Below are positions 8,513-64,000 of a stretch of 64,000 nt of DNA, piece by piece. Source of the stretch: an uncultured Gammaproteobacteria bacterium (GTDB lineage: Bacteria > Patescibacteriota > Microgenomatia > UBA10105 > UBA927); assembly GCA_964445435.1 (NCBI GenBank), contig CAYUKU010000001.1:44384-108383 (forward strand). Reading direction: 5' to 3'. How positions within the stretch are numbered: position 1 is the first letter of the stretch; every line of letters starts with the position of its first letter. The notes beneath the pieces were generated by a model. The model was given only the letters and a program-made list of their open reading frames with translations. It was not told where the DNA came from and made no database searches. Position numbers and translations under genes: made by a program.

Positions 8513-10501
8513 TCATGAACCGTATGCAAATATGACGCCGTACATGGGCATAATCGTCGTTGCGGTTACCGTTTTTTTGTGTTTTTTGGTTTGCTTTTTG
8601 TTTGCCCCCGCTTTTGTCGTCTGCATACCCTGTTCCCGAATCATGGAAAGATGCCAGATAATCGCAAGAAGCAACCATTGGCCAAATTCCCGCTGTATAA
8701 GCCCTTCTGGGTGCCTTTCTCTTACGCGTGCAAGGAGACCAACTTCCTTCATGTTCTTCCCCTCTGTCCGCATATCCCCAGGCGCGGCGAGAAACGACTC
8801 GAGAGACTCCAATGTCGCGTGATAGCTCATAAGTTTCAATGTCATCCAGAGAGCAAGCGCAAGAGAAAATCGAGATATCTCATACCGCTCCCGTTTAATC
8901 GGCTCTGGTAAAAACGCACCCTCAGAAACATCCGGCGCACTGACAAGACGTTGCGTTTCTCCAAAAAGCATCACAAGAGACTGTTCTACTCGTTTCTTCT
9001 CACGAGCAATCGCTTCTTTCTGATCCTTTACCGGAAGCGCGTCTATACCTTCCAAAAATCTGATGGACCGGACAAATGTCTGCACGTCTACACTCTCTGA
9101 TACCTCAACCAGTTTGGGATTCGTTTCTGCTTCCGGCTGTTTACGTATTCCTTCACTCATCATCATAAAAAACAAGTCGAAAACATGTGCGCCAACCTGG
9201 TCCGTTTCGTTTGCGTTACCCTTTGACGTTACTGCATCCTTCCCTCCAAGCCTTTCCTCTGCGGGCATCAGAAACACACCTTCGCCCAACAATCCTTCAT
9301 GCGGCGTCAAAGTGAAGGTGTCTAGCGCGAAAAGGGCTGCGGGAACCCCGACACTTGAAGACTCTTGAACCAGTGCCGTGGCGAGGCTACGTATCTCATT
9401 GGCTTCTTCAAACGTTTCCCACATCTCCCGCACCTCAATATATAAGTGTTCTGATTGTTCTTCTGAAACTCCCAGGACATCTCGTACCGTTTGCGTCCAA
9501 ACTTCTACCTTTTCCGGCTCCGTAAGAAGAGAAAATCCGGGAGAAGCAGGTTCCGTGGTGATTGCGAGCATAACCGTCAGGTTTCCCTTGTGGATCACAT
9601 CTTCCAAGTTTCTGGTGTACGTTGGAGCTTCGTATGACACACTTGACTCCTCAACGATCTCTGGAGCGTGCTGCCGTTTCATATAGTCAACAACGCCGAC
9701 AATCGTCTCCCGCGTGTCATCCACAATGTTGTATGCCACCACTTCTGCTGTCTCGGAAGAAAGTGCGATAACCCCATATACGGCTGCCGCTAATCCTTCG
9801 CGGACATCATCCTCTGCTATCATATGATCTAGCGCTATAGACGCCATTTCCGCAACCTGTCGTTCACGCTCCCTTAAGATGAGCGGGAAAACCGATACAT
9901 CCCGAGATAGGCGCGCTAGATACTCCGCTCCCTCGTCCGTTGCAGCGACGGTTTCTTTGGCTTCTTGGAGAATCTCCTCTGGAGTAACGGTCCGGAAGAA
10001 AAGAAGCGGCTTTTCGAAATTATCGCTTTCAGATACGTCGGCACCGCCTTTCACGCCGAGTCCCCGAAAAAAATCACCAAGAGTTTCATCGTTTCCGTGA
10101 AATTCAACCGCAAGCGCCTGAATCGTGTTCCCTTCGCCCCTGCTGTAGAGATATATATAATTTCTTCCGTATCCCAAATCCGGACTTGCAACTGCAGCCA
10201 TCTCTATGGAATCATCGTTCATCATGGCTTTCTCTGCTGCCAAAACACGATCAAGCCTATCAGCACCCACGTCATCGGGATCGGTCAATTCTTCGATTGT
10301 TTTTCCACCGCTGTCCGTCCATCTTCCTTCTTCATTAATCTCGTAATCGAAAGGGATAAGCGTTTGCTTGAGGATAAACTCGTGATCGTGTGCTACTGCG
10401 TCTTTCGCAAGCGCCCTGGAAACCACGTCGAGCGATCTGCCGTTATCGAGCATTTCCTCCAGATAATTTTTTTCGTTTTGCGGATTCCATTCGTGACTCA
10501 T
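8513..10501 (-). CDS. large acidic hypothetical protein (662 aa)
   Basis: Long uninterrupted ORF, co-oriented and nearly contiguous with the downstream genes. No recognisable motif. Confidence 0.4.
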   Translation of the reverse strand: MSHEWNPQNEKNYLEEMLDNGRSLDVVSRALAKDAVAHDHEFILKQTLIPFDYEINEEGRWTDSGGKTIEELTDPDDVGADRLDRVLAAEKAMMNDDSIEMAAVASPDLGYGRNYIYLYSRGEGNTIQALAVEFHGNDETLGDFFRGLGVKGGADVSESDNFEKPLLFFRTVTPEEILQEAKETVAATDEGAEYLARLSRDVSVFPLILRERERQVAEMASIALDHMIAEDDVREGLAAAVYGVIALSSETAEVVAYNIVDDTRETIVGVVDYMKRQHAPEIVEESSVSYEAPTYTRNLEDVIHKGNLTVMLAITTEPASPGFSLLTEPEKVEVWTQTVRDVLGVSEEQSEHLYIEVREMWETFEEANEIRSLATALVQESSSVGVPAALFALDTFTLTPHEGLLGEGVFLMPAEERLGGKDAVTSKGNANETDQVGAHVFDLFFMMMSEGIRKQPEAETNPKLVEVSESVDVQTFVRSIRFLEGIDALPVKDQKEAIAREKKRVEQSLVMLFGETQRLVSAPDVSEGAFLPEPIKRERYEISRFSLALALWMTLKLMSYHATLESLESFLAAPGDMRTEGKNMKEVGLLARVRERHPEGLIQREFGQWLLLAIIWHLSMIREQGMQTTKAGANKKQTKKHKKTVTATTIMPMYGVIFAYGS

Positions 10502-10523: not shown

Positions 10524-10640
10524 AGTTGGCTTTGGCCTCTCCTTTGACTCGAAGGATACGCGTATCTGAAACCTGCGACCGGACTATCACCGTTGCGGTA
10601 CAGTTCCCGAGTTTCACGGGATTCGGAGTTTCGGATATGA

Positions 10641-11192
10641 CTATTTTTGGGTACGTTCCCGAGGAATACCGGACCAAACCGTTTCCTCGATATGATTGTT
10701 CTTATTTATAAATCTCGCAAGCATAAAAAACAAGTCCGATAACCGGTTGAGATATTTAATGATTTGAGGATCGACCTGTTGTCGCTGAGCCAAGGCAACG
10801 ACCTGCCGCTCTACGCGTCGCGCTATACTTCTGGTGACATGAATATGAGCGGCTTGCGGTGATCCGCCCGGGAGGATGAAATTGGCAAGCGGTGGTAAGC
10901 TTTTTTCCATCGCATCAATCTCCACCTCCATTTCGGTGACGCGGGTAGGAAGAACGGACAAATCAGCTTTCCAACCGGCAAGACTTCCTCCTACTGTAAA
11001 AAGGTCTGACTGGATTTTCACGAAAAGATCGCGAAGATGGTCAAATTTCGTTTCCGAGACAACGAGTCCCACCCAACTGTTGAGCTCATCCATTGACCCG
11101 TATGCATCGACTAACTCTTCGCATTTAAGAACGCGCTTGCCACCGAAGAGGCTCGTTTTTCCGGCATCGCCGGTACGGGTGTAAATCGGCAT
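10641..11192 (-). CDS. ATP:cob(I)alamin adenosyltransferase, PduO-type
   Basis: MPIYTRTGDAGKTSLFGG...DAYGSMDELNS is the signature N-terminus of PduO/MMAB-type adenosyltransferases. Confidence 0.85.
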   Translation of the reverse strand: MPIYTRTGDAGKTSLFGGKRVLKCEELVDAYGSMDELNSWVGLVVSETKFDHLRDLFVKIQSDLFTVGGSLAGWKADLSVLPTRVTEMEVEIDAMEKSLPPLANFILPGGSPQAAHIHVTRSIARRVERQVVALAQRQQVDPQIIKYLNRLSDLFFMLARFINKNNHIEETVWSGIPRERTQK

Positions 11193-30655: not shown

Positions 30656-31126
30656 TTAGGTGTATCGGTCTGCTACCTTACTTGCCGCGTAGCTTTCCGG
30701 CTTTATTTTTACATTGTATCCTGATCCGCGAATCATACCGACAATCTCCTGAATCATCTCTCTGGTATCGCCGAACTTGCCAATATCCACGTGTATCTCT
30801 ACATCGTATTTCGTAATGCCGTCTTTGTGCAAGAGCGTGAGGACCGTTTCTGCCATCTCAAGCGACATAGTGGCCTCTTCGTACATCCGCTCTCGTAGAA
30901 CATAATGCTTCTTGTTCACCGTCCTTCGCCAGAAATAGATGCCACCCGCTCCAATCCGATGGACAACCAGAGCGGTCACGAAATCCACGCCTAAACCGTT
31001 ATGCGGCTGGGAATCAGTACCGATCACAATCTGATATATCTTGTCCGGATCATTGGCAAGAAAATGAAGAATTCTTTCACGCACCTGGGGAAGCTCTAGA
31101 TCTCCGTATGTCGGACTTTGAAACAT
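30656..31126 (-). CDS. YkuK/DUF458-like RNase H-fold protein
   Basis: IVIGTDSQ...VDFVTALVVHRIG...EIHVDIG pattern of the DUF458 family. Weak. Confidence 0.35.
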   Translation of the reverse strand: MFQSPTYGDLELPQVRERILHFLANDPDKIYQIVIGTDSQPHNGLGVDFVTALVVHRIGAGGIYFWRRTVNKKHYVLRERMYEEATMSLEMAETVLTLLHKDGITKYDVEIHVDIGKFGDTREMIQEIVGMIRGSGYNVKIKPESYAASKVADRYT

Positions 31127-31210: not shown

Positions 31211-31477
31211 TTATTGTCGTGGTCGCTCTTCGCGGGGTCGTGCTTCGTTGACTACCAATGCTCGGCCATCCACGTCTTTACCATTGAACATTTCAATGGC
31301 TTTCTTCGCCTCTTCATCGCTTGCCATTTCGACAAATCCGAATCCGCGTGATCGACCAGAATATTTGTCACTGATGACCTTTGCGGAAACGACGTTGCCT
31401 GCCTGCGCAAACATTGTCTGAAGCTGCGCGCTATCTGTTGCGTAAGGAAGATTCCCTACAAATAGATTCGTTGCCAT
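31211..31477 (-). CDS. RRM-type RNA-binding protein
   Basis: RNP2 LFVGNL and RNP1 RGFGFVEM motifs. Confidence 0.85.
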   Translation of the reverse strand: MATNLFVGNLPYATDSAQLQTMFAQAGNVVSAKVISDKYSGRSRGFGFVEMASDEEAKKAIEMFNGKDVDGRALVVNEARPREERPRQ

Positions 31478-32234: not shown

Positions 32235-32284
32235 AACTCCCCGAGTATACCATGTTTCTTCTTCCTGTTTGGTATAATGCGCTC

Positions 32285-32695
32285 ATGAGACAAGGAATCA
32301 TGTTTGCCGTTATCATGGCGCTTATGCTTTCGTCGGCTGTAAACGTATCGGCTGCCAAAAAACGCATCAGAACCACCCGCGCCGCAGCAGTAAGCTACTC
32401 TTCGGCAAAACTCTCCCGCTCCACAAACAGCGTCATCGTGACGTTCAAAAATCTCGCCAGGGTCAATCGCGTCGAATACACATTAAGCTATTCAGCCAAC
32501 GGTATTTCGCAGGGCGTAGTAGGTTCGTTTATTCCAAACGGACTGGGATCAGACACGCGTGACTTATATTTCGGCACGTGCAGCAAGGGCGTTTGTACGC
32601 CGCACTACGGCATTACCAATGCAACTCTGGTTATTACGACAACGCTCACGTCCGGAAAAACAAACACAAAGCGGTACATCATCAAACGCGTGTAA
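32285..32695 (+). CDS. small secreted beta-rich hypothetical protein
   Basis: Signal-like IMFAVIMALMLSSAVNVSAA, then Ser/Thr-rich beta strands. Confidence 0.4.
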   Translation: MRQGIMFAVIMALMLSSAVNVSAAKKRIRTTRAAAVSYSSAKLSRSTNSVIVTFKNLARVNRVEYTLSYSANGISQGVVGSFIPNGLGSDTRDLYFGTCSKGVCTPHYGITNATLVITTTLTSGKTNTKRYIIKRV

Positions 32696-32700
32696 GCCGT

Positions 32701-33459
32701 ATGACATTTCTTCACGCGATACTCCTGTCTTTTGTCGAGGGAATCACAGAATTTTTGCCGGTCTCATCGACCGGCCACCTGATTCTCACAAGCCAGATCC
32801 TCAATATCCCCCAAACAGAATTTACGAAATCCTTCGAATTATTTATTCAGCTTGGCGCTATCCTCGCCGTCTTATGGCTGTATGGGAAAAAACTTCTCGT
32901 GGAGAAACTGCTCCTGGTAAATATCGGCATCTCCTTTCTCCCCACTGCGTTAGCAGGATTTCTCCTCTATCCCTTCATCAAAGGAACCCTGCTGGGAAAC
33001 AGTTCGGTCGTGTCGTGGTCACTTATCGTGGGCGGTGTCGTTCTTATCGCAATAGAACGTTTCGTAGAAAAAAATAAAACTCCAGATATGAAGTCTTTTT
33101 CCCAGAAAGAAGCGTTTCTCATCGGCTGTGCTCAGGCAGTCTCAGTTATCCCCGGCGTATCGCGGGCAGGAGCGACCATTGCAGGAGCGCTTCTTCTGGG
33201 AGTCCCGCGCCAAACGGCTGTTGAATATTCGTTTCTGCTTGCTCTTCCCACCATGGCAGCGGCCGTCGGATTCGACATTCTTAGAACCGCCTGGCAGTTT
33301 TCCGCGTCCGACATGTCAATTCTTGCAGTCGGATTTCTCGGCGCGTTTATTACGGCACTCTTTACTATCCGAATATTTACGAATTTCGTGAAAGCGCACT
33401 CGTTTACCTTTTTTGGCATATATAGAATCCTGGTTGGAATTCTGTTTTTATTTGCATGA
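32701..33459 (+). CDS. uppP: undecaprenyl-diphosphatase (BacA/UppP)
   Basis: MTFLHAILLSFVEGITEFLPVSSTGHL and later PGVSRAGATI motifs. Confidence 0.9.
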   Translation: MTFLHAILLSFVEGITEFLPVSSTGHLILTSQILNIPQTEFTKSFELFIQLGAILAVLWLYGKKLLVEKLLLVNIGISFLPTALAGFLLYPFIKGTLLGNSSVVSWSLIVGGVVLIAIERFVEKNKTPDMKSFSQKEAFLIGCAQAVSVIPGVSRAGATIAGALLLGVPRQTAVEYSFLLALPTMAAAVGFDILRTAWQFSASDMSILAVGFLGAFITALFTIRIFTNFVKAHSFTFFGIYRILVGILFLFA

Positions 33460-34313
33460 AAAAAGTTGCGCTCGTCACCAGTACTGAGTTCCCAAAACTG
33501 TCGGAAAGCGATCAACTCCTCGTTTCTCCACTAAAACGTCACGGGGTTGAACCGACTGCGGTAGCCTGGGATGATCCCTCAGTCGAATGGAGTCAATTCG
33601 ACGCAATTATCCTCCGCTCAGCCTGGAACTATCATTACCGATACGATCCGTTTATCAAGTGGGTTACAGATCTGGAAAAAATTCGAGTACCCGTTTTCAA
33701 CGCGCCGGCTGTCGTCAAGTGGAATTCTCAAAAAACGTACCTAAAAGATTTGGCGCAAAAAGGAATTCGTACGATTCCGACTGTTTATCAAACGTACCAT
33801 TCACATTGCGACCTTGCCCGTGAGATGGAAACGCATTCCTGGAACACCGTCGTCGTAAAACCAGTCATCGGAGCATCTGCGTATGAGATTTTTTCCGTTT
33901 CCCGCTCAGATGTGGAAACAGGACAGAAGAAACTTACCAAACTTCTTGAAAAAAAAGGCTGCATGCTCCAGCCGCTTATGGAAGAAGTACAACAAGGAGA
34001 ATACTCGCTTATTTTCATCGGCGGCAAATATTCGCACGCCGTCTTGAAAGTTCCTCCGAAAAACGACTTCCGTTCCAACTATCAATTCGGAAGCCGAGAA
34101 ATTATCGTCGAACCCGATAAAACGATACTGGATCAGGCGGCCCATGTCATTTCCCAAGTCAAATCCGACCTCCTGTATGCCCGCGTGGACGGAATACGCA
34201 AGGATAACACGTTTGTTCTCATGGAACTGGAACTTATCGAACCGCATTTATTTTTCGATATGTACCCCAGCGGCGCGGAATTTTTTGCAGCGGAATGCGC
34301 GAAACGTCTATGA
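33456..34313 (+). CDS. ATP-grasp ligase (RimK/GshB-like)
   Basis: 285 aa. KPVIGASAYEIF and C-terminal ARVDG...FVLMELELIEP consistent with the ATP-grasp fold. Start overlaps the uppP stop. Confidence 0.5.
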   Translation: MKKVALVTSTEFPKLSESDQLLVSPLKRHGVEPTAVAWDDPSVEWSQFDAIILRSAWNYHYRYDPFIKWVTDLEKIRVPVFNAPAVVKWNSQKTYLKDLAQKGIRTIPTVYQTYHSHCDLAREMETHSWNTVVVKPVIGASAYEIFSVSRSDVETGQKKLTKLLEKKGCMLQPLMEEVQQGEYSLIFIGGKYSHAVLKVPPKNDFRSNYQFGSREIIVEPDKTILDQAAHVISQVKSDLLYARVDGIRKDNTFVLMELELIEPHLFFDMYPSGAEFFAAECAKRL

Positions 34314-35779
34314 ACGACTCTTCGGTAAAAGTAGATATTGTCGAGACGCTGAATGAAGTGTCGTATCTTCTCTCCGACGCGGATCGAAAACTCGCCAGGT
34401 TTCTCGGGATAATCCAAAAAAACAAAAAACATATTACACCCCAAACCGCAGATCGAATAGTACGCACAGTCCAAGTCTACAGACACGACCTCTCCTCTCA
34501 GAAAGAGATCATAAATGCTTGTTACGTCAAAACCCGCAGGCTATCTTCAGAAAAAGAGGTCGAGAGTATTACGGGCGTCATAGAAAACGCACGGGAGCAT
34601 CTTCGGACACATCTTGGCCTGTTTGGTACGCTTATCACAAGTACGGATTGGCAGTCTCCGACGTTCGCACATTCTCTGTTTTCGCAGGCAGGACGAGAAA
34701 CCGGGCGTATCTACGCAACTATGAATGACTACAAGCGCGATCAGCATTGGGATAGTTACTACTACGAACAGGCGTTTCTGAGAGAATACATCGATGTCCT
34801 CATTAAGTTTCCAGCACACATCTTCGCTACTTCAAGCGGCATGGCGGCTTTTACAACTATCCTTCTTTTTCTCGTCGGGGAAAAGAAAATTTCCGGACCG
34901 ATACTGGCGGGCAACTCTATCTATTTTGAAAACAAGGGACTGCTAACTCAATTGTTTGGGAATTCGGTTATTTATGAAGATGAAACGGATATGGAATCAT
35001 TTATCGGTGCGGTCAAAGCCCATAAACCCTCGGTAATTTTCATCGACAGCCTCACAAATTCGCCTTCCATCATCATACCGAATATTCCCAAGCTTATTGG
35101 GTGGCTTGCGGCACACGCCGTCAAAGAAACATATCTTATTATCGACAACACCGGCCTATCAGTGTTACTTCAACCATATAAACACCTCTTTGGCAGGAGG
35201 ACGAAACTTCGGATCATTACATTCGAAAGCCTCAATAAATACCATCAATTTGGCATGGATCGGTTTACGGGCGGCATCGTTACTTCCTACGGCATGCACA
35301 CAGGAAAGCTATTTGATTATCGGGATCACGGCGGAACAAACATCATCGATAGTACCGCCGCAGCGCTTCCGACGCCCAATCGAAAACTCCTCTCAGCGCG
35401 GCTTGCCCGTCACACCCGCAATGCACGCAAACTGGCGTCTTCATTACGACAATGGCTCGCCGGTCACCCGGCAAATGCGGTAGAGGAAATCTCGTATCCC
35501 GGACAGGGAAGCTATCTCGCTCTCAAATTTACACCAAAGAAACACACAATCAAGACATATAAACGCTTTGTCGAAACTGCCGTGGCGATAGCCAAACGCC
35601 ATAACGTCAATCTAGTTTCCGGTACCAGTTTCGGGCTCGACACGACGCGTATTTACCTTACCGCTGTTCGAAGCCGTCCGAACACTCCGTTCGTCCGAAT
35701 AGCGCTCGGGACAGAACATGTTCTTATGCTGAAAAAAATAACTGATGTCTTCATCGAAACGCTCAAACAATTCGCCTGA
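34295..35779 (+). CDS. PLP-dependent Cys/Met-metabolism family enzyme (CGS/MGL-like) with about 160-aa N-terminal extension
   Basis: ATSSGMAAF glycine-rich PLP loop, and ESLNKYHQFGMDRFTGGIV aligning to the S-A-T-K-Y-x-G-G lysine motif. 19-nt overlap with the upstream ATP-grasp gene. Confidence 0.55.
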   Translation: MRETSMNDSSVKVDIVETLNEVSYLLSDADRKLARFLGIIQKNKKHITPQTADRIVRTVQVYRHDLSSQKEIINACYVKTRRLSSEKEVESITGVIENAREHLRTHLGLFGTLITSTDWQSPTFAHSLFSQAGRETGRIYATMNDYKRDQHWDSYYYEQAFLREYIDVLIKFPAHIFATSSGMAAFTTILLFLVGEKKISGPILAGNSIYFENKGLLTQLFGNSVIYEDETDMESFIGAVKAHKPSVIFIDSLTNSPSIIIPNIPKLIGWLAAHAVKETYLIIDNTGLSVLLQPYKHLFGRRTKLRIITFESLNKYHQFGMDRFTGGIVTSYGMHTGKLFDYRDHGGTNIIDSTAAALPTPNRKLLSARLARHTRNARKLASSLRQWLAGHPANAVEEISYPGQGSYLALKFTPKKHTIKTYKRFVETAVAIAKRHNVNLVSGTSFGLDTTRIYLTAVRSRPNTPFVRIALGTEHVLMLKKITDVFIETLKQFA

Positions 35780-35780
35780 T

Positions 35781-36806
35781 ATGCCAACACCAATTTCTGA
35801 GTACGACTATCATCTTCCTGAAGACCGAATTGCCCAGACGCCCGCAAACCCGCGGGAATCCGCAAAACTTATGGTCCTTACGAGAAACGACCAAACCATG
35901 ATCCATAAACATGTATCAGATCTGCCTCAATATTTTCGTCGGGATGACATCCTTGTAGTGAATAATACGAAGGTGTTCAGGGCACGACTCCATGGAACTG
36001 TCGGGAAAAAAACGGTTGAATTATTTCTTATACGACCGACAGAAAAAAACACGTGGATTGCGATGGGAAAACCAGGAAAAAAAATTACGCCCGGAAGCAC
36101 AATTGTCATCGCAGGCGATTTTATCGGCCACGTCGCTCACAAACACGAAGACGGCACGTTTATCGTTGACTTCGGGATGCTTCCCGAGGCGGTCATCGCA
36201 AAGGCCAATCAGTATGGCTCAGTTCCGGTGCCGCCGTACATAAAAGCAGTTCCCAACGCTTCCGACTATCAAACCAGTTACGCCAAATACGAAGGCTCTG
36301 TTGCTGCCCCCACTGCCGGATTCCATTTCACGAAAAACATCCTGCAAACACTTGCAAAAAAAGGCATTACGATCATAGAGCTAACACTTCATGTGGGACT
36401 GGGAACATTCTTACCCATAAAATCACAAACCGTGGAAGAACATGCAATTCACAGTGAATGGGTAAACGTTTCCGCAGACGTAGCCAGAACGATCAATGAA
36501 GCCAAGCGGGACAAGAGAAGGGTTATCGCCGTAGGAACAACCACAGTACGCACGCTCGAAGGAATTGCACACATTCACAACGGCCTGGTAGTGCCATATC
36601 AAGGCGATATCAATCTCTTTATTACACCCGGATATCGATTCTCAATTGTCGATGGCATGGTAACGAATTTCCATTTACCGAAATCCACGCTTATCGTTCT
36701 TGTAAGTGCGTTTGCCGGTCGGAAGACAATATTGAATGCATATGAAGAGGCAATTCGGTTGGGATACCGCTTTTACAGCTTCGGCGATGCTATGCTTATC
36801 TTGTAA
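35781..36806 (+). CDS. queA: S-adenosylmethionine:tRNA ribosyltransferase-isomerase
   Basis: YDYHLPEDRIAQTPANPRESAKLMVL N-terminus and GTTTVRTLE motif. Confidence 0.9.
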   Translation: MPTPISEYDYHLPEDRIAQTPANPRESAKLMVLTRNDQTMIHKHVSDLPQYFRRDDILVVNNTKVFRARLHGTVGKKTVELFLIRPTEKNTWIAMGKPGKKITPGSTIVIAGDFIGHVAHKHEDGTFIVDFGMLPEAVIAKANQYGSVPVPPYIKAVPNASDYQTSYAKYEGSVAAPTAGFHFTKNILQTLAKKGITIIELTLHVGLGTFLPIKSQTVEEHAIHSEWVNVSADVARTINEAKRDKRRVIAVGTTTVRTLEGIAHIHNGLVVPYQGDINLFITPGYRFSIVDGMVTNFHLPKSTLIVLVSAFAGRKTILNAYEEAIRLGYRFYSFGDAMLIL

Positions 36807-53995: not shown

Positions 53996-54158
53996 ACTGT
54001 AATCTATATCACACTAAAGCAAGTAAATAAAACAGTTTTGTCCGAGAAACGGGAATTTTCCGACACATTGACTAGTGACTTACCTAGAATATCCAGAATT
54101 TACCACCAAAGAAATTAATCGATTTCTCAACTTTTAGTCAAAGCAAGATGCCAATCAT

Positions 54159-54486
54159 TATTGATTTTCATAGACTTTCTTACCGGCTTCTGTGATCAGT
54201 CCGAGTCTCAGTAATTCAGCATATCTTTTTTGTTCATCGCTGACCACTGACTGTTCTTTTTTCTGGGAGTAAACCGCACCATATAGGTTTCTTTATCAAT
54301 GCCTTTTTCCATGCTGTCTATCCAACCAAAGCACAAAGCCTCATCCAGTAGATTTTGAAAAGTGACAGTCTGCTTCCCGCTGGACTTCTTGTGTAAAGTT
54401 ACCCAAATCTCTTTTTCATTCTGGTGATACTATCGTAGCCAATGACGCCACTCGACTTGAGCTTGAGGGGAAATAGTGTTTGTCAT
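54159..54486 (-). pseudogene. YdeI/OmpD-associated-family gene remnant (at least 2 frameshifts)
   Basis: Minus-strand translation gives MTNTISPQAQVEWRHWLR* / QNEKEIWVTLHKKSSGKQTVTFQNLLDEALCFGWIDSMEKGIDKETYMVRFTPRKKNSQWSAMNKKDMLNY* / LRLGLITEAGKKVYENQ* in three different frames. No ORF of 60 aa or more in the track. Confidence 0.6.
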
Positions 54487-54543
54487 ATCATTAGTTTAAT
54501 GGGAAATTGCCCTTTTGCCTAATTTGCTTCATTCGAAAAATGG

Positions 54544-55013
54544 ATGAAAAATCTGTCAAAACTTGTTATTTCTATTGTTGGTTGTGAAGTAGTAGGAATT
54601 CTGGGGAGCGTATTTACGGTTTCCTCAATTTCCTCTTGGTACGCCACTTTAAATAAGCCCTTCTTTGCGCCACCGAACTGGATATTTGGGCCTGTTTGGA
54701 CACTCCTATATTTTCTAATGGGCGTAGCGTTTTATCTGATCTGGAAACAAGGTTGGAAGAAGAAAAAAGTTGCTACCGCCGGCAAATACTTTTTCGCACA
54801 ATTAGGGCTCAACTTTATCTGATCACCCGTTTTCTTTGGCTTACGATCGCCGCTATTGGCTCTATGTGTTATTATCGTCCTGTTGGCGCTGATCGTGATG
54901 ACAATCAAAAAATTTTATCCCCTGTCCAGATGGGCAGCCTACCTGCTTGTCCCATATCTTTTCTGGGTGAGCTTTGCTTCCGCACTGAACGCTGCCATCG
55001 CTATTCTTAATTG
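54544..55013 (+). pseudogene. tspO: TspO/MBR (tryptophan-rich sensory protein) gene interrupted by a single in-frame TGA at a conserved Trp position
   Basis: WYATLNKPFFAPPNWIFGPVWTLLY...LNFI-TGA-SPVFFGLRSP...AAYLLVPYLFWVSFASALNAAI is a full TspO in one frame. The TGA at 54820-54822 aligns with the conserved W of the LNxxWxPxFF motif. Confidence 0.65.
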
Positions 55014-55109
55014 ATCTTTGGCTCCACCTCATAGATATGTTCCGTAACCGCGTGATTGAGATAAGCATACCACTCGTCAATCTCAAAACACTGTTTGAAA
55101 CGTTTCACA

Positions 55110-55721
55110 TCACACCTGCGTTCGCTTGACCATGATGGTTGGAACACGAATAGTAAAACCACTTTCTTCCGGACTAATGTATATGGTTTCATATTTTTCC
55201 TGCAATTTCTCCCGAAGCTTTTCCAGATATACGTCTTTTTTTAGTTTTCTGCCTCCCGTCTGGTGTGCCCAAAAAAGAGCCATAGCATCGCTCCCGTCAC
55301 CTGCTTGTATCGTAAACGGCAGATGTATTTTTTGCGCGTATGCTTCTATCTCATGGATAAATGCCTGAACACTTTGGTTTTTCGCATGAAACAGTCTGTC
55401 CCTGTACATGAGTGAGAATGGATAATATCTCGTTATAAAACTCCAAAATCGGTCGTGGATAGTCATGATGACCAGAACAATTATTACCCGTATGCCTTTG
55501 TTAAAGTCCGAACGTCTTATTTCAACATTTCTTGGCACATGGACGAGCTTGTAAATATACCGAGCAAATGGTTTTGGCAAAAATAGGATAAGATATACAC
55601 CGAAAAGAAGGAGAAACAGAAAAAATAATCCTATCGTAATATGAAGTAATTCAAGGAATTTGAGAAACAGAAAAAACGCTACTACTGAACCCAAAACTAT
55701 ATACTGTGTTTTTACGCTCAT
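55110..55721 (-). CDS. membrane protein, unknown function
   Basis: Two N-terminal TM helices plus a soluble C-terminal domain. Confidence 0.4.
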   Translation of the reverse strand: MSVKTQYIVLGSVVAFFLFLKFLELLHITIGLFFLFLLLFGVYLILFLPKPFARYIYKLVHVPRNVEIRRSDFNKGIRVIIVLVIMTIHDRFWSFITRYYPFSLMYRDRLFHAKNQSVQAFIHEIEAYAQKIHLPFTIQAGDGSDAMALFWAHQTGGRKLKKDVYLEKLREKLQEKYETIYISPEESGFTIRVPTIMVKRTQV

Positions 55722-55992
55722 ACATCAGTTAACTTGTAATTCCCTTACCCGTATTTTTTTCACGTCGCCTATAATGGTGTTTTCATCATACTCCTGTGGA
55801 CGAACATTGATAATAAGACCGATATTTTCTGGCTCATGAAATAGCTCTTCTGCGTATCTAAATCTATGGCCAAATGCCGTTGAAAGAGATACGGGCTTAC
55901 CTGATTGTTAACCACCTTTAACCACCTTGGAGGTGAAATATTAGGTAGCCTATTAAGACAAAGTCAATCAGGTACTAAACCAAAGACAAAAC

Positions 55993-56148
55993 TTAAACCT
56001 TAACCTTAATAAGATCCCTAATACGACGTTCAACCACGCTCTTATACAAATATTGATACGCAGTCACTACATTTTCCATAAGTTGTTCTTTTTGTTCAGA
56101 AGTAGCCGTATCAAGATTTGTTGTAACACTAATTTTCCGTTTACTTCT
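55993..56148 (-). CDS. small ORF (about 52 aa) translationally coupled to the upstream nuclease gene
   Basis: MRSKRKISVTTNLDTATSEQKEQLMENVVTAYQYLYKSVVERRIRDLIKVKV. Its start overlaps the nuclease stop by 8 nt. Confidence 0.3.
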   Translation of the reverse strand, partial: RSKRKISVTTNLDTATSEQKEQLMENVVTAYQYLYKSVVERRIRDLIKVKV

Positions 56149-56896
56149 CATATTGCCTAACAGCACTGCGATATTTACAGAAGTCACAGTCTTCCCCTGA
56201 TTCAGGTATGCCGTCACTTTTCAAACATTCAATGGCTTTGAGAATAGTTCCCTCAACCCAATCTGTATTGCCTTTATAGGGAATGAGTTTGATATCAAAT
56301 TCCAATTTGGCGTCAAAGGCCTCTTTGTCGGTATTGCCATTGCAGTAGACGAAATAGCCAGTATCAGACACTTTGAAGCCGTTTTCTCTAAATAGCCATT
56401 GGTATATTTCCATCTGACGTTTGTATCCATCCTGCCACTCGGCATCTAGGGTTACTTCTTCATCTTTGGATGTAGCCTTGTAGTCAACCACGATATATTC
56501 TCTCGATGGCGTCACCCACATATCATCCACACCACCCGTGATAACAACGTTCGTGTTATCCACTCGGACAGTTATACCGCCCCGTAGTGAATCCCGCCAT
56601 TCGTCGATCTTTTCGTGGGCTAGTGGTATAGCGTCGATGCCGTACTTCTCCATTAATGGATGTCTGGTGCCTTTGGCCCGATGAATATCAAACTCTTTTT
56701 TCAGGAGTTTATCGACGGCAGAGTTAAGGGAAAAAGGGTATCCAGGCGGTTGGGCCACACCAAGTCTACGATCCAGATAAAAACAACGGGGACATGTAAT
56801 AAAATTGTTAATTTTTCCACGACTCAAACGAAACAACTCACTAGAGTTTGGATCGTAAATATTTCTTGTTCGGTTTGGATTGTAATACTGGCTCAT
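56141..56896 (-). CDS. Cas4/RecB-like PD-(D/E)xK nuclease with Cys cluster
   Basis: N-terminal CPRCFY and C-terminal C-x12-CDFC cysteines. Core D...VVDYKATSK (D-x-K) nuclease motif. Confidence 0.55.
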   Translation of the reverse strand: MSQYYNPNRTRNIYDPNSSELFRLSRGKINNFITCPRCFYLDRRLGVAQPPGYPFSLNSAVDKLLKKEFDIHRAKGTRHPLMEKYGIDAIPLAHEKIDEWRDSLRGGITVRVDNTNVVITGGVDDMWVTPSREYIVVDYKATSKDEEVTLDAEWQDGYKRQMEIYQWLFRENGFKVSDTGYFVYCNGNTDKEAFDAKLEFDIKLIPYKGNTDWVEGTILKAIECLKSDGIPESGEDCDFCKYRSAVRQYEK

Positions 56897-59379
56897 TGTT
56901 TGTTTACTTTATTACTTATGATTTTTTGCACCAATCGTAAATCCTCGTCGTTATAAAGCCTAAATCTCACAGATTGATACTGGTTATCTCGTACCAATAC
57001 TGAATCTGGATGTGACAACCCATTTTTTAATTGTTCTACTATTTCGGGGGTAGATGAGCCGAGTTCGCCATATACCCAATGATTTGCGTAATAGTAAAAC
57101 AACAACAATTCTTCACCCCGTTTAATACTGTGATACGAACCAGCTCCACCTTTTGAAATGTACACATCGCCGTCAGGGAACTCTTCATCAACCCACTGAG
57201 GAATAGACGTAACAGCTTTTTTGACAAATTCGTCTTTCACTCTGGCAATTGTTTCATCTTCTGTTTCTGGTGGTTTAGTTACGCTTACCTTAACCTCCTC
57301 CTCGTTATCGTCATCACCCTTTACGCCCCGCAACACCTGGGCAAACCATTCAATCGCCGCTTCCGCTTCTCGTTGCAATACAAAGTTAATTTCTTTGATG
57401 TGTTTAACCGCATTACGGAAATCTTTTAGAGTTATAAATCGTTTCTCTGTTTCGTACTTAGAGCCAAAGAATATTTCGAAGTGTTCCCAGTTTTTGAGAA
57501 TGATATTGGAATAATCCATGACGTCGCATTGACACAAACGATCATATGCATCCAGTTTCTCCTCAACAACATAGGGGTTCTTACGCAGGTATTCTGCTAG
57601 TTTTACTTTTACTTTCCCTTGAATATCTCCTGGCACTACCTGATTCCAATAATCTTTGCCAATTTTTTCGGACAATTGACTATTGATAAGTAAACGCAGT
57701 TTTAATTCAATGTCGTCTAAAGCTTTATTTGCATTTACGCCAAGGATCTGGATAATCTTTGATCCCGTTAGTCTTTCAAACTCTCGCTTGATAGCTTCTG
57801 CACGCTCTTTGATAAACAATTTATAGTTATCTTCTTTAATGGCATCACCGTAGTTGATTAAATGCGTTTCCAGTGTGTCATTAAATTCAGGATTTTCATT
57901 TTGATAATGGGCGAAATAATCGCTAGGTTTTTGATCTAATATTTCCTTATTCAATTCAGCAGGGATAAAGCAAAAGTTGGCTATTAAATTTTCCCCACCA
58001 ATCCTGTTTTTTGAGAGAAAACGCCTCGGGAAGATATGATGTTTTTCTGGACTATTAAAGCTTGAGTAGAAATGTCGATCCATTGGAATAAGTCCATTGG
58101 TTTTGAAATGCCTTGGGTTTCTACGGGCCAACATACAGAAGATAGCATTTCTAAGCGCAGATTTTGTACCAATTGTGGCAGTGGCAATCTTTTCCTCATC
58201 CGCCGTAATAGCAAAGTTTATCTTCACATCTTTGCCATTTAGGAGCTTATCGAATATTTCCCGACGATCTTCTCCCATCTTGCTTTCCATAGCTGCTGTG
58301 TATCGCTCGCTTAAAGATGATTTCCAAAACCACTCATGTACCACATCTGTCATCTCTTTACTTAATGCCCGCCCATCCGTCTTGAAATACAGATAGGCCA
58401 ATAGCGGAATGAATGACGGGTATGGAGTAAATTCAAAGATTTTAACCCCTAGATTGGCCGACAAATGCTCAACCGCCAACTCAATCGCATTAGCAATCTC
58501 ATTCCAATTCTCCTTTATTTCCTCTTTTTTTAGCTGTAATTGATATATCTTGCTACAAAACCCTTTGAGAATGAGCGAAATGGCGTGTGTAACTACTTCT
58601 GGGCTAATATCTCCAAAACCTTTCGATGCAATCCTTTCCCGCAATTGGTTGTAATTCTCCTTTAGATCAAAATCTTCACCCCATGTACTAGCTACCACCA
58701 AATCGAACAACGACAATTTCTTACCACCCTGGTTGATGCGTTCAAATATGACGCTAGCATTGTTGAGTTCGACGTTATAGACAGTTACCACACTAAGGGG
58801 GTAAGTGGTGAATATCCGATGACACTCCATGAACACTTCCTGCCGTTCGGGTGACAGTTTGCGAAACATCTGCATGTGATCTTCACCCAAGACTTTGTAT
58901 AGAGGAATATATCTATCGCTTTCCCGCTTCACCTCAAAGACTGATTGGTTGCCATTATCATCAGGCTCTTTTTTGTAGTAATCCAAGTCTAAGCAGATTT
59001 GCGAACAGTCAACCAATTTTGTTTTATTGCCATCCTTAAACTCAACCCGAACACCATGCCAGGCGGCATAGAGTGAACAAATACGTTGTTGGCCGTCTAG
59101 GATGAATTTCAATTTTTCATCCTCTCTTGGTTTAGGTGGTGTTATTCCAAGTTCAGGTAGATCCCGATAAAACAGATTGTATTTGCCCGTTGTTTCCCAA
59201 AGAAAAAAACTACCAATCGGATACTCTTTGTAAATGCTATCCAACAAGGCCACAATTTTGCTTCGTTCCCACACAAAGTCCCGTTGAAATCGGGGAACAC
59301 GAAGAGTTCCTTCTTTTAGGTAAGTAAGTAGGGAAATGATTTGTTTGTTTCCCTCTGATTCAATTTTTGGTAGCTTCAT
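56893..59379 (-). CDS. GmrSD-like DUF262 (ParB/Srx-fold, DGQQR) + DUF1524 (His-Me finger) protein with C-terminal HEPN-like and unknown domains
   Basis: N-terminus VPRFQRDFVWERSKIVALLDSIYKEYPIGSFFLWE ... ILDGQQR. Middle EKHHIFPRRFL...NLIANFCFIPAELNKEI (DUF1524). Later Rx4H motif FRNAVKHI. The final about 130 aa is aromatic-rich (LLLFYYYANHWVYGE). Confidence 0.65.
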   Translation of the reverse strand: MKLPKIESEGNKQIISLLTYLKEGTLRVPRFQRDFVWERSKIVALLDSIYKEYPIGSFFLWETTGKYNLFYRDLPELGITPPKPREDEKLKFILDGQQRICSLYAAWHGVRVEFKDGNKTKLVDCSQICLDLDYYKKEPDDNGNQSVFEVKRESDRYIPLYKVLGEDHMQMFRKLSPERQEVFMECHRIFTTYPLSVVTVYNVELNNASVIFERINQGGKKLSLFDLVVASTWGEDFDLKENYNQLRERIASKGFGDISPEVVTHAISLILKGFCSKIYQLQLKKEEIKENWNEIANAIELAVEHLSANLGVKIFEFTPYPSFIPLLAYLYFKTDGRALSKEMTDVVHEWFWKSSLSERYTAAMESKMGEDRREIFDKLLNGKDVKINFAITADEEKIATATIGTKSALRNAIFCMLARRNPRHFKTNGLIPMDRHFYSSFNSPEKHHIFPRRFLSKNRIGGENLIANFCFIPAELNKEILDQKPSDYFAHYQNENPEFNDTLETHLINYGDAIKEDNYKLFIKERAEAIKREFERLTGSKIIQILGVNANKALDDIELKLRLLINSQLSEKIGKDYWNQVVPGDIQGKVKVKLAEYLRKNPYVVEEKLDAYDRLCQCDVMDYSNIILKNWEHFEIFFGSKYETEKRFITLKDFRNAVKHIKEINFVLQREAEAAIEWFAQVLRGVKGDDDNEEEVKVSVTKPPETEDETIARVKDEFVKKAVTSIPQWVDEEFPDGDVYISKGGAGSYHSIKRGEELLLFYYYANHWVYGELGSSTPEIVEQLKNGLSHPDSVLVRDNQYQSVRFRLYNDEDLRLVQKIISNKVNKQ

Positions 59380-59382
59380 AAT

Positions 59383-62300
59383 TTATTTTTCTCCCGTCCA
59401 ATCTTTTGCTAATAACTCCGCCTGTTCCAATACAATCTTGGTAGCTCCATCCTGTTTGTCTGGCGGGTAGTTATATTTCTTGAGCAACCGCTTGATATAA
59501 ACCCGTAATTTAGCTTGAATGCTTTCCTTGATCGTCCAGTCGATAGTGGTATTTTTACGGAGCATATCCACCAGCTCCCGAGCCATTGCCTTAAGGGTTT
59601 CATCACCTAGTTCTCTAATTGCGCTTTCGTTATTAGAGAGTGCGTCATAAAATGCCACTTCTTCCTCGGTTAATCCCATGCCCTTGCCTTTGTCTTTTTC
59701 GTCTTTGATCTTCTTGGCTAGTTCTAGAAGTTCTGCGATTACCTGCGCCGCTTCAATCGTCCTGTTCTGGTACTTACGAATTGTTTCCGCGAGCATTGAG
59801 GCAAATGAACGAGATTTAACCAGATTTGTTCTGGCAAAAGTTCGGAGTTCATCGTTTAAGAGTCTTTTCAGAAGTTCCAAAGCTACGTTTTTGTGCTTCA
59901 TATTTTTCACTTCTTCCAAAAACTCCTCGGAAAATATCGAAATGTCAGGAGTCTTGATCCCAGCTGCAGAATAGATATCTATCACCGCGTCCGATGTCAC
60001 CGCCGAAGATACTATCTGTTTAATCGCTACGTCATACTCTTCATCAGTTGGCCCTCCGGAACGTGCTTCCATTTTCAGAATCGCGCCCCGTACAATCTGG
60101 AAAAATCCTACTTCATCTCTAATCTCAATTGCTTTCTCATGGGGAACGGCTAGTGAAAATGCCTTCGATAATTCTGATACCGCCGCAAGATACCGTTTTT
60201 TGCCATCAGGAAGCCCCAAGATAAAATCAGTTGCGCCAGAAATTGTTTGCGTGCGTAAAGAGGCAGCAGAGCTAAAGTAGTTTTGGTAGCCAAACCCGTG
60301 ATACATTCCCCGAACCACTTCGTATTTTTCGAGCATTACCGATACCGCCTCGTCTTGAGGAATAGCTGTTTCCTGTCTATCGGATTCCGAATAATAAGAT
60401 AGAGCCTCCTTTAATTCAGGCGCAATGCCGATGTAGTCAACGATAAGTCCGCCTTGTTTGTCCTTATAGACACGATTGACGCGAGCAATAGCTTGCATCA
60501 AACCATGCCCCTGCATGGGTTTGTCTATGTACATCGTATGCAAGGACGGCACGTCAAAACCCGTCAGCCACATATCCCGCACAATAACTAGTTTCAGGGA
60601 ATCGTCGGGATCTTTCATTCGTCTAGCCATTTCATCTAATGCATGTTTGGCCCGAATGTGGGGTTGATACTCCTCTGGATCAGCCGCCGATCCTGTCATC
60701 ACAACTTTCAAAAATCCTTTGTTGTCATCTCCCTCATGCCAGTTTGGCCGAAGTTTTATGATTGCGTTGTATAGTTCCACCGCAATCCTACGGCTCATCG
60801 CCACGATCATGCCTTTGCCATCAATGGCAGAGAGTCTATTTTCAAAATGATCCACCACGTCACGGGCAATAAGAGCAATGCGTTTTTCCGATCCCACCAT
60901 TGCCTCGAGCCTTGCCCACTTACTCTTCAATTTTTCCTTGCGCTCAACTTCTTCACCCTCGGTTAGTTCTTCAAATTCGGGATCAATCTTGGGCTGTTCT
61001 TCTTTCTTTAGTTCAATACGGGCTAGTCTGGCCTCGTAGTAGATCGGTACTGTGGCATGATCTTCAACCGCACGGGTAACATCGTATACATCGACATATT
61101 CACCAAATACCGCCCGTGTGTTTCGATCTGTCAGCTCGACAGGAGTGCCAGTAAAACCGATAAAGGAGGCATTGGGGAGAGCAGAGCGCATGTGTTTGGC
61201 AAAGCCATGAATAAATTCATACTGGCTCCGATGGGCTTCGTCGGCAATAACCACAATGTTTTTTCGATCAGACAGCATCGGATATTCCGTGTGTCCATTT
61301 TGAGGTAAGAATTTTTGAATAGTCGTAAATATCACCCCACCCGATGCCACCCGTAACAACTCTTGTAACTCTTCTCGGTTCTCTGCCTGTTTAGGAGTTT
61401 GCCGTAAGAGTTCATGACAACGAGAAAAGATGCCAAACAGTTGGTTGTCCAAGTCGTTGCGATCGGTTAAGACGACGAGAGTCGGGTTGTTGAGAGTTTG
61501 GATGATTTTACCCGCATAAAACGTCATGGTTAGGCTCTTTCCCGATCCTTGCGTATGCCAAACTACACCCGCTCGTCTGTCTCCCTCTTCCTGTGTCGCC
61601 TTAATCGTGCTTTCAATGGCCTTATTGGTAGCAAAATATTGGTGATACGCTGCCGCTTTTTTGATAGTATGCTCGCCATCGGTTTCAAAAACAATGAAGT
61701 TGGCGAGTAAGTCCAAGAGTCGGGTTTTATCAAAAATACCTTTTAAGAGTACCTCTAGCTGGGGTAGTGCATTGGAGGCTAGCTCTTTCCCATCTACAGT
61801 TCGCCAACGGGTAAACCATTCCAGGTTGGCCGAAAGCGTCCCCATGCGGGCCTCAATTCCGTCACTAATGATGGAAAGTTCGTTATAGGCAAACAGAGTG
61901 GGAATATCCCGTTTGTAGGTTTGGATTTGGTTAAAGGCATTTTTAACTGTGGCTTTTTCATCTCCTGGGTTTTTTAGTTCGATAACAACTACAGGTAACC
62001 CATTCACAAACACCACCACATCGGGCCGACGATTCACATTGTTTTCAATAATGGTGTATTGGTTAACAGCCAAAAAGTCGTTATTTGCAACGTCGCCAAA
62101 GTACACCAATCGTACTTTATCACCAGCTACAGTTCCATCAGAGCGCATATATTCCACATCCACACCATCCCGCAGATAGGAATGAAAGATTTTGTTATTG
62201 ATGATCAGATTCGGGGTAGTGTGGGCCACCTGCACCACTTTCTTAAACGCCTCTTCTTTAGCATCTTGGGGAATATTGGGATTTAGTTTTTCAATAGCCG

Positions 62301-62463
62301 TAAGCAATCTGTCCTCAAGTACCACGTCGCCATAACTAGCCCGTTCGGGATGTTCGCCATCGGGAGGTGGGGCAATCTCTGGGCCACCAATAACCGAATA
62401 ACCCAACCCCTCGAGCCATTCAAGTGTTGCTAGTTCTAGATCTGTTTCTGTGTATTTAGTCAT
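59383..62463 (-). CDS. hsdR: type I restriction enzyme R subunit
   Basis: 1026 aa. N-terminal nuclease domain. SF2 helicase motifs [24 protein letters not shown] and QAIARVNR. Confidence 0.9.
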
Positions 62464-62468
62464 ATTTA

Positions 62469-63623: not shown

Positions 63624-63624
63624 A

Positions 63625-64000
63625 CTAATTTTTCACTCTTAATTTCCCACTCATTAATCTTGGTAATAGAGAATCTCGCAGTGCGCCCAATTGTTCGTTC
63701 TCATCCATTTTTGCATTGATTTCTTGATATATGGCTCCGCATATCTGATTAAATCGATCTAGAATATCCTTACTCGGTGACAATACTGACATTTGTTTTA
63801 GATGTGTTGGCCCAAAATTTGCTTGCACACTACCTGCTGATAATCGTATTTGTTCACTTAAAAATTCTTCAGATTGTAAATACTGATACATAAAGGGATA
63901 ACTTACATTATCTTGGGGCCTAAATCGAATAACGCTCGTATTAAGTAAAAGTGGTAGATGTGATTTGCGCACAATTGCATTTTTACCTAAAGTTCCCGAT
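63625..64000 (-). CDS. hsdS: type I restriction enzyme S subunit (C-terminal part; gene continues beyond window end)
   Basis: C-terminal conserved helix EQLGALRDSLLPRLMSGKLRV typical of HsdS. The ORF is open at the window edge. Confidence 0.75.
   Translation of the reverse strand, partial: SGTLGKNAIVRKSHLPLLLNTSVIRFRPQDNVSYPFMYQYLQSEEFLSEQIRLSAGSVQANFGPTHLKQMSVLSPSKDILDRFNQICGAIYQEINAKMDENEQLGALRDSLLPRLMSGKLRVKN

Follow-up and report, generated by a model that had tools for sequence, protein, structure and literature searches.

The window analyzed here is a stretch of 64,000 nucleotides (nt) of contig CAYUKU010000001.1 (GenBank assembly GCA_964445435.1), recorded as an uncultured Gammaproteobacteria bacterium and placed by GTDB in the Patescibacteriota (Microgenomatia). 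Two of its genes, directly adjacent on the + strand, are the subject of this account. The first (33456-34313, + strand), an open reading frame (ORF) of 285 amino acids (aa), specifies an ATP-grasp enzyme that we describe below as a DcsG-type carboxylate-amine ligase or cyclase. The second (34310-35779, + strand; 489 aa from its likely start) specifies a divergent pyridoxal 5'-phosphate (PLP)-dependent enzyme of the gamma family, with the fold of the Cys/Met-metabolism enzymes. We tentatively propose that the two could constitute a facultative two-step module for tailoring amino acids, of which the PLP enzyme would be the core; the gene structure, family assignments, retained catalytic residues, recurrent adjacency and alternative partner are observed, whereas a shared pathway, the succession of its steps and the type of reaction are inferred.

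Both ORFs lie on the + strand where the initial annotation had placed them, at 33456-34313 and, in the longest version of the PLP gene, at 34295-35779 (494 aa). This longest version contains a second in-frame ATG at 34310, which together with the ligase stop codon (34311-34313) makes up an ATGA start/stop overlap (34310-34313). The PLP gene likely begins at this second ATG because the identical database protein (P0001) has 489 residues, because the homologs align from that methionine and because a 4-nt overlap is also seen in the related loci L081/L082, L086 and L170. The 19-nt overlap reported at first thus applies to the longest ORF, and is reduced to 4 nt with the likely start, from which all residue numbers below are counted. 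An overlap of this kind is consistent with translational coupling.

The pair belongs to a tightly packed string of genes on the + strand, which starts with an ORF of 147 aa without a Pfam match (32252-32695) and continues with uppP (undecaprenyl-diphosphatase or BacA; 32701-33459; Pfam BacA, 1.2e-68), the ATP-grasp gene, the PLP gene and queA (S-adenosylmethionine:tRNA ribosyltransferase-isomerase; 35781-36806; Pfam Queuosine_synth, 2.8e-122). The stop codon of uppP and the start of the ligase gene also overlap as ATGA. The PLP gene stops at 35777-35779, and an ATG one base later matches the queA start used in relatives, so that queA most likely begins 1 nt past the PLP stop; in relatives it either follows the PLP gene immediately or lies 3-7 kb further on. 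We regard uppP and queA as genomic context only. The GC content is 0.45-0.51 across most of the window, and proteins identical to the pair occur in NCBI and Logan assemblies. Gene content and nearest relatives indicate a Patescibacteria genome close to Gottesmanbacteria/Microgenomates. Upstream of the string are genes for a DUF458/RNaseH_like protein (30656-31126, - strand) and an 88-aa RRM_1 RNA-binding protein (31211-31477, - strand), both kept in place in L081 and L086, from which their Pfam labels were taken.

An ATP-grasp ligase of the DcsG type

The Pfam GSH-S_ATP domain is detected in the ligase at 1.2e-10 (41.5 bits versus a cutoff of 23), and the protein had initially been called RimK/GshB-like. 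The ATP-grasp assignment and the GSH-S_ATP domain stand, and by analogy with GshB and RimK the enzyme would share their chemistry, namely the activation of a carboxylate as an acyl phosphate followed by condensation with an amine. The RimK/GshB label itself was dropped in favor of a DcsG-type identity, DcsG being a much better match: the GshB equivalogs score far below their cutoffs (PRK05246, 47.7 versus 272 bits; TIGR01380, 41.5 versus 299), and the RimK Pfam domain finds no match in the window ligase and weak matches in some of its homologs only. The best NCBIfam model is that of DcsG (NF058666), which aligns end to end with an E-value of 7e-48, and the sole relative in the Protein Data Bank (PDB) is DcsG of Streptomyces lavendulae, the D-cycloserine synthetase (6jil; 2e-22 over residues 21-285). 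Precomputed database annotation assigns the Pfam DcsG_N profile (PF27100) to P0121, whose sequence is identical to the window ligase, and to all of its close homologs; with the full-length likeness to 6jil, this places the protein in the DcsG_N/DcsG-like family.

The residues K135, P136, E182, R243, D245, E257 and E259 are invariant in 35 homologs and shared with DcsG, and the ligase appears to keep the ATP- and Mg-binding residues of the ATP-grasp superfamily (the lysine of K-P-x-x-G and the acids of E-x-E/N). The motifs common to DcsG and the ligase are KP..G, QP..E, GE..L.F, SHA..K, RVD and E.EL.EP, and the mean column identity in the ligase family is 48%.

In the cycloserine pathway, a PLP-dependent replacement enzyme, DcsD, is followed by DcsG, which takes a D-amino acid as its substrate. 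DcsG and the window ligase are thus alike in standing beside, or acting after, a PLP enzyme, but the partner here is a fold-type-I enzyme of the gamma family whereas DcsD is a CysK-like enzyme of fold type II. The ligase also differs from DcsG in missing the equivalog cutoff of NF058666 (163.2 versus 360 bits) and in lacking a dcsA-F context: no homologs of the other dcs genes (CysK-like, arginase-like, acetyltransferase) adjoin the pair in the window or the related loci, where the neighbors are instead uppP, queA, NUDIX, typA and PBP1A. A true DcsG or cycloserine cluster was rejected on these two grounds. Further, unlike DcsG, the ligase is a member of a very large family that mostly stands alone and that occurs in soil bacteria, in archaea and in the candidate phyla radiation (CPR). 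As far as its sequence tells, it is best described as a DcsG-type ATP-grasp enzyme that is neither RimK nor GshB, nor demonstrably a cycloserine synthetase.

A divergent gamma-family PLP enzyme

The gamma-family (CGS/MGL-type) fold assigned to the second protein at the outset is borne out, albeit in a very divergent form. The Pfam Cys_Met_Meta_PP profile (PF01053) matches with an E-value of 4e-15 (55.6 bits versus a cutoff of 27), the match being limited to residues 174-411 and to profile positions 68-287 of 381. The best sequence matches in the PDB are methionine gamma-lyases (MGLs), at merely 2.5e-7. The fold predicted by AlphaFold2 (AF2; pLDDT 95) comes closest to members of the PF01053 family, which supports its inclusion there; the nearest structural relatives of the model are cystathionine gamma-synthase/lyase and the O-acylhomoserine sulfhydrylases, and its likeness to TM1270 is no greater than that to lyases and synthases.

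The protein does not cluster with canonical MetB or MetC. All 19 NCBIfam equivalogs of Cys/Met enzymes score <=52 bits versus cutoffs of 440-703, the best being PRK08574 (52.4 versus 477); the values are 37 versus 550 for MGL (TIGR01328) and 43 versus 488 for cystathionine beta-lyase (TIGR01329). Nor does it have the canonical architecture of ~380-430 aa without an extra domain: its 489 residues include an added three-helix bundle of ~110 aa, which is absent from MetB, MetC, MGL and the sulfhydrylases, as well as from CndF and TM1270. A phmmer search of 1.84 billion representatives recovered 228 proteins at E<=1e-30, a number that rose to no more than 580 at E<=1e-3; almost all are ~500 aa long. 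By these searches, the family is small and sharply set apart from the very populous canonical enzymes. Its members are currently annotated in databases as 'cystathionine beta-lyase/gamma-synthase' or 'PLP-dependent transferase'.

Across 99 sequences of the family, the catalytic residues are invariant or nearly so and align with their MGL counterparts. Those expected to contact the cofactor or the substrate carboxylate are intact: Y141-x-R143, S176-G177-M178, Y205, D279 (in DNT), S307/K310 and R463. The Schiff-base lysine K310 (codon 35237-35239, + strand) aligns with K210 of the Citrobacter freundii MGL and lies in the motif ESLNKYH, in which S307, L308 and K310 are invariant; the motif is therefore of the form S-x-N-K-Y and not of the SATKY type first attributed to it. 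R463 (codon 35696-35698, + strand; FVRIALGTE) is also invariant and is the counterpart of the arginine that binds the alpha-carboxylate in the gamma family (LVRLSVGLE; R374/R375 in MGL). The signature otherwise departs from the canonical one at several places: SLNKY replaces S-x-T-K-Y/F, YFEN replaces YG(G/C)T, SFGLxTTR replaces SLGGxES and an invariant WQSP...DYKRD loop is specific to this family. Additional invariant residues of its own are Q115-S116-P117, D140, D144, Q288, D317 and R338, with R318 and R447 nearly so. These suggest a substrate other than those of MetB, MetC or MGL.

The N-terminal region had been taken for a domain of about 160 aa. A helical extension that matches no family is indeed present, but the extra part spans only ~95-110 aa, residues 110-165 being the normal N-terminal segment of the fold. 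The extension is a three-helix bundle formed by residues 1-109 (34310-34636, + strand), with AF2/DSSP helices at 3-37, 44-75 and 81-109. It is weakly conserved in sequence, the conserved positions being only D9, E16, L20, F31 and R99. A profile built from 22 N-termini matched only designed coiled coils and spectrin in the PDB and gave scattered weak Pfam matches with nothing consistent among them, and a known domain in this region was accordingly dropped from consideration. The bundle is followed by a coil, TSTDWQSP...NDYKRD (residues 110-146; 34637-34747, + strand), which is the most conserved stretch of the protein, with Q115, S116, P117, G128, D140, Y141, R143 and D144 invariant in the 99 sequences. 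As its NDYKRD(Q) aligns with the Y-x-R motif (...yiytr...) of the MGL 9qm6, we take the coil, from this alignment, to correspond to the N-terminal segment with which each subunit of the canonical enzymes completes the active site of its neighbor.

Recurrence of the pair and other partners of the PLP enzyme

The pair co-occurs in other genomes in several arrangements, in keeping with the expectation of a conserved gene-neighborhood. The order ligase-PLP (with the 4-nt overlap)-queA behind uppP is shared by the window, L001, L081/L082 and L086; in L170 and L171, this same series, with its 4-nt overlap and with queA after it, follows a T2SSE/T2SSF pilus cluster rather than uppP. The PLP gene comes first, with spacers of ~20-170 nt, in L010, L021 (the same locus as L169), L026 and L092, and in L169 and L092 a gene for a transporter of the MFS_3 family precedes the two. 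In L088, where the PLP enzyme is 34% identical to that of the window, the genes are divergent and separated by 20 nt. Immediate adjacency is thus seen in three arrangements and lineages, at PLP identities of 34-68%. Looser linkage on the same strand is found in L083/L084 (3.7 kb, with two GH130 genes and a 227-aa ORF in between) and in L002/L172 (~9 kb). A neighbor-joining tree of the ligases places every PLP-linked version in one low-GC CPR clade. When loci of this clade were reached via the ligase alone, three of the seven were PLP-linked; random placement among ~1000 genes would bring the two genes next to each other in ~0.2% of genomes. Given this recurrence in several arrangements, a functional pairing of the PLP enzyme with an amide-forming enzyme is a reasonable supposition. 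In L172, which is on the same contig as L002, the region between queA and the ligase gene includes HAD, Nramp and ABC genes and a gene for the enamine/imine deaminase RidA (Ribonuc_L-PSP; 1473-1850), a type of protein whose usual role is to detoxify what PLP-dependent eliminases produce.

For the distribution of the PLP family, neighborhoods were drawn from one genome per species (114 loci returned, 80 kept) and the neighbors were mapped by tblastn and ORF clustering. The 80 loci comprise 63 of the CPR type, 16 from Actinomycetota (Solirubrobacterales, Gaiellales, Thermoleophilia) and one from an Omnitrophota metagenome-assembled genome (MAG). In this distribution, confined to Patescibacteria, Thermoleophilia-type Actinomycetota and a single Omnitrophota MAG, the family differs from the canonical enzymes. 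The CPR loci span Gottesman-, Uhr-, Magasanik-, Levy-, Adler-, Woese-, Sacchari- and Peribacteria. Many MAGs labeled 'uncultured Gammaproteobacteria bacterium' (L003, L005-L009, L011, L012 and others) show CPR synteny and fall among Gottesmanbacteria-like sequences in the PLP tree; the organism labels of such records are probably wrong.

Several observations weigh against the two-step module, and we gather them here. A DcsG-type ligase lies within 2 kb of the PLP gene in just 4 of the 63 CPR loci, and none is found within 8 kb in the other 59 or in any of the 17 actinobacterial and Omnitrophota loci. A ~310-aa protein of the AstE/AspA fold occurs within 2 kb in 45 of the CPR loci. From the side of the ligase, the PLP gene is present at one of 80 metagenome loci encoding ligases of 35-45% identity (mostly from high-GC soil bacteria), and these loci have no consistent shared neighbor either, each candidate occurring in at most eight. 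Since the ligase family is conserved without the PLP family, the function of the ligase cannot generally depend on the PLP enzyme. The linked cases may come down to about three independent events. As overlaps are common among the genes of this string (uppP-ligase ATGA, queA at +1 nt), the overlap in itself is no evidence of joint function, and a scan for promoters and terminators over 31.4-37.4 kb gave counts at the background of shuffled sequence, with no signal of an operon boundary. Finally, a literature search found no paper on the pair, on the PLP family in CPR or on DcsG homologs outside cycloserine producers.

The gene for the AstE/AspA-fold protein is invariably on the strand opposite to the PLP gene and, at most loci, just upstream of it (e.g., L005 6970-7920, - strand; L022 6947-7885, - strand). 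Its best named relative is DoeB, the N-alpha-acetyl-L-2,4-diaminobutyrate deacetylase of ectoine degradation (TIGR02994, 5e-21; PDB 6twl/6twm, ~1e-13), and by analogy it may be a deacylase that frees an amino acid for the PLP enzyme. It scores 75 bits versus the DoeB cutoff of 403, and its first zinc-ligand histidine is replaced by aspartate (GxDGDEY versus GVHGDEY in PDB 3cdx). The PLP partner also differs, being a class-III aminotransferase for DoeB and a gamma-family enzyme for the CPR protein. The ligase and the deacylase are never found together (0 of the 63 CPR loci, with 4 and 45 having one alone; Fisher p=0.005, not corrected for phylogeny). Two further partners occur within 2 kb of the PLP gene: a spermine-synthase-like class I methyltransferase in 15 of the 63 loci and a GNAT-fold protein (PF13480) in 14. 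These two are sometimes fused into a protein of ~450 aa; examples of the genes are L033 2582-3943, L050 9439-10143 and L013 9455-10276, among others. A dozen CPR loci (12/63) have none of the ligase, deacylase, methyltransferase or GNAT genes, and the window itself holds no homolog of the last three. In the Actinomycetota loci, whose high GC makes simple ORF calls noisy, the neighbors of the PLP gene looked unrelated and no conserved one was found. A single slot in Gottesmanbacteria-like genomes, running from T2SSE (- strand) to the PLP gene and on to queA, is occupied by the ligase in L170/L171, by the deacylase in L005-L009 and by nothing in L002-L004 and L173. The PLP gene gives the impression of a constant core whose partners can be exchanged.

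The ligase family, for its part, gave 4661 hits, which include Thaumarchaeota and Aenigmarchaeota besides soil bacteria and CPR. Among its neighbors in the metagenome loci are gyrB, rhodanese, MocR, transporters and kinases. A panB-panE-panC-coaX-ligase-coaBC operon, in which the ligase gene and coaX overlap by 4 nt, is found in one non-CPR lineage (L087 5001-5879; also L114, L132 and L158), a hint that part of the family acts in or near the metabolism of coenzyme A (CoA) or pantetheine. In L106, L136, L139, L151 and L162, the ligase gene is immediately preceded, or slightly overlapped at its start, by a gene for a ~155-aa rhodanese-like protein. Four of these five mid-GC loci also have a regulator of the MocR type (GntR/aminotransferase) close by; both identities, rhodanese and MocR, rest on inspection of the sequences by eye.

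Possible functions of the pair

Because the cofactor- and alpha-carboxylate-binding residues are retained, the PLP enzyme of this Gottesmanbacteria/Microgenomates-like CPR genome should bind a free alpha-amino acid, presumably as an external aldimine, on which it would perform a beta/gamma-elimination, a replacement or possibly a racemization. The DcsG-type enzyme could then turn the alpha-carboxylate of the amino-acid product into an acyl phosphate and condense it with an amine, either inter- or intramolecularly, much as DcsG does with the product of DcsD. What is fed to the ligase might be the product of a beta/gamma-replacement, the amino-acid leaving group of a lyase or a racemized amino acid. 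The ligase would act after the PLP step since an alpha-carboxamide could not bind R463. In other CPR genomes, the DoeB/AstE-like deacylase would free the amino group of an N-acylated precursor, and would do so before the PLP step since an N-acylated amino acid cannot form the aldimine. The DoeB-like partner and the gamma fold hint at a four-carbon substrate such as homoserine, homocysteine, methionine or diaminobutyrate. The initial idea of a pathway coupling PLP chemistry to ATP-dependent amide ligation is partly upheld: the recurrent adjacency and the precedent of DcsD and DcsG speak for it, while the facultative nature of the pairing and the ligase family's large independence from the PLP enzyme weaken it.

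The explanation that competes best with the tailoring module, and which we regard as possible but rather unlikely, is that the two genes are functionally unrelated, having been brought together through the compactness of CPR genomes, local synteny and an inherited gene order with a few chance rearrangements. The equally tight packing of their neighbors (uppP by ATGA, queA at +1 nt), the lack of a ligase at most PLP loci and of a PLP gene at most ligase loci would all follow from this. Moreover, the ligase-then-PLP loci and those with 3.7-9 kb between the genes all belong to a single Gottesmanbacteria-like lineage and have flanking genes in common (T2SSE, GH130, queA, NUDIX). However, adjacency is also seen in two more lineages, with another order or orientation and PLP identities of 34-42% (L010/L021/L026/L092; L088), and the PLP linkage of 3/7 ligase loci in the CPR clade is far above the ~0.2% of random placement.

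A bolder view, which we deem improbable, is that the PLP family is a CPR-wide enzyme, also present in Thermoleophilia, whose reaction or substrate is new to the gamma family, at the core of a modular salvage or cell-envelope pathway in which the entry step (the DoeB-like deacylase with its Asp-substituted metal site) and the exit step (the DcsG-type ligase or cyclase) are swapped between lineages. The enzyme may in that case be a racemase or epimerase, or carry out a gamma-replacement on a scavenged four-carbon amino acid.

Two more specific roles each seem to us to have only a slim chance of being right. One is a cell-wall module, in which the PLP enzyme would be a racemase or epimerase, the ATP-grasp enzyme would ligate a D-amino acid onto a peptidoglycan precursor and the role of a murein-peptide amidase would fall to the M14/AstE-like partner. 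Analogs exist in TM1270 of Thermotoga, a cystathionine-beta-lyase-like protein that is mainly a racemase, in D-Ala-D-Ala ligase and in the D-aspartate ligase of Enterococcus with its racemase. The position of the pair behind uppP in the window, with a class A penicillin-binding protein 3.7 kb upstream, agrees with such a role, as do the use of a D-amino acid by DcsG, the PF13480 GNAT-fold protein near the PLP gene in 14/63 CPR loci and the arrangement at L054, a locus without the ligase, where the PLP gene comes directly behind uppP. Yet the uppP context is missing at most loci, including the close relatives L170/L171, the deacylase partner is nearest to DoeB and not to murein amidases, and the PLP enzyme has no racemase sequence signature and is structurally no more like TM1270 than like lyases or synthases.

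The other is the salvage of sulfur amino acids, in which the PLP enzyme would cleave cystathionine or homocysteine to release cysteine or another thiol amino acid, and the ATP-grasp enzyme would ligate this product into a small thiol peptide or a precursor of pantetheine or CoA. The nearest structural relatives of the PLP enzyme (cystathionine gamma-synthase/lyase and O-acylhomoserine sulfhydrylases), the match of the ligase to the ATP-binding domain of glutathione synthetase and the place of the ligase gene between coaX and coaBC in one non-CPR lineage point this way; so do RidA between the PLP and ligase genes in L172, a single observation, and MsrA beside the PLP gene at one actinobacterial locus, where it was recognized by eye. 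Against this, all the Cys/Met equivalogs score far under their cutoffs, positions governing specificity differ (YFEN for YG(G/C)T and TTR for ES(L)), the CoA operon context is confined to a single lineage and the GshB equivalog reaches 41 bits versus 299.

Lastly, an antimetabolite cassette, in which PLP replacement, DcsG-type cyclization or ligation and MFS export would yield a cycloserine- or homocycloserine-like cyclic hydroxamate or an unusual dipeptide, is very unlikely: DcsG is the only characterized relative of the ligase, the Dcs pathway joins a PLP replacement enzyme to DcsG and an MFS_3 gene (of the EntS-type exporter family) precedes the pair in L169 and L092, but no other dcs homologs stand beside the pair in the window or related loci, the DcsG equivalog cutoff is missed and the broad conservation of the PLP family among reduced genomes, for the most part beside a hydrolase, is easier to reconcile with salvage or housekeeping than with antibiotic synthesis.

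Elsewhere in the window, a low-GC block on the - strand (54000-64000; GC 0.39-0.41 versus ~0.47 elsewhere) holds a defense island, which was probably acquired horizontally. It codes for a PD-(D/E)XK nuclease (56141-56896), a GmrSD_N protein (56893-59379), the R subunit of a type I restriction system (59383-62463) and the Shedu protein SduA (62469-63623), all on the - strand. The ligase and the PLP enzyme themselves match none of the PADLOC anti-phage defense profiles at E<=0.01. A match to the AdoCbl-II (B12) riboswitch (10570-10637, - strand; 37.5 bits versus a gathering score of 36.5) sits between a PduO-type cobalamin adenosyltransferase (10641-11192) and an ORF of 662 aa without a Pfam match (8513-10501), which could be a riboswitch-regulated gene for a B12-related protein. 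A 782-aa protein (5689-8037, - strand) has the domains of TrwB/TraG-type coupling proteins of type IV secretion.

The PLP protein represents an uncharacterized subfamily that is restricted to certain lineages and that stands out by its additional helical domain and its changed active-site signature. As the metabolism of Patescibacteria is minimal, an enzyme kept across many of their classes likely matters for the scavenging or remodeling of host metabolites. The prevailing 'cystathionine' annotation would wrongly imply cysteine and methionine biosynthesis in metabolic reconstructions of these organisms. With its own domain and signature, its two mutually exclusive amide-handling partners and a DcsG-type ligase among them, the system offers a small and concrete set of genes for biochemistry, and a functional result on the ligase would be the first foothold in the very large, uncharacterized DcsG_N family of ATP-grasp enzymes. 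Were the PLP family to catalyze a reaction new to the gamma family, it would define an unrecognized salvage or cell-envelope pathway of importance to these host-dependent, ultra-small bacteria.

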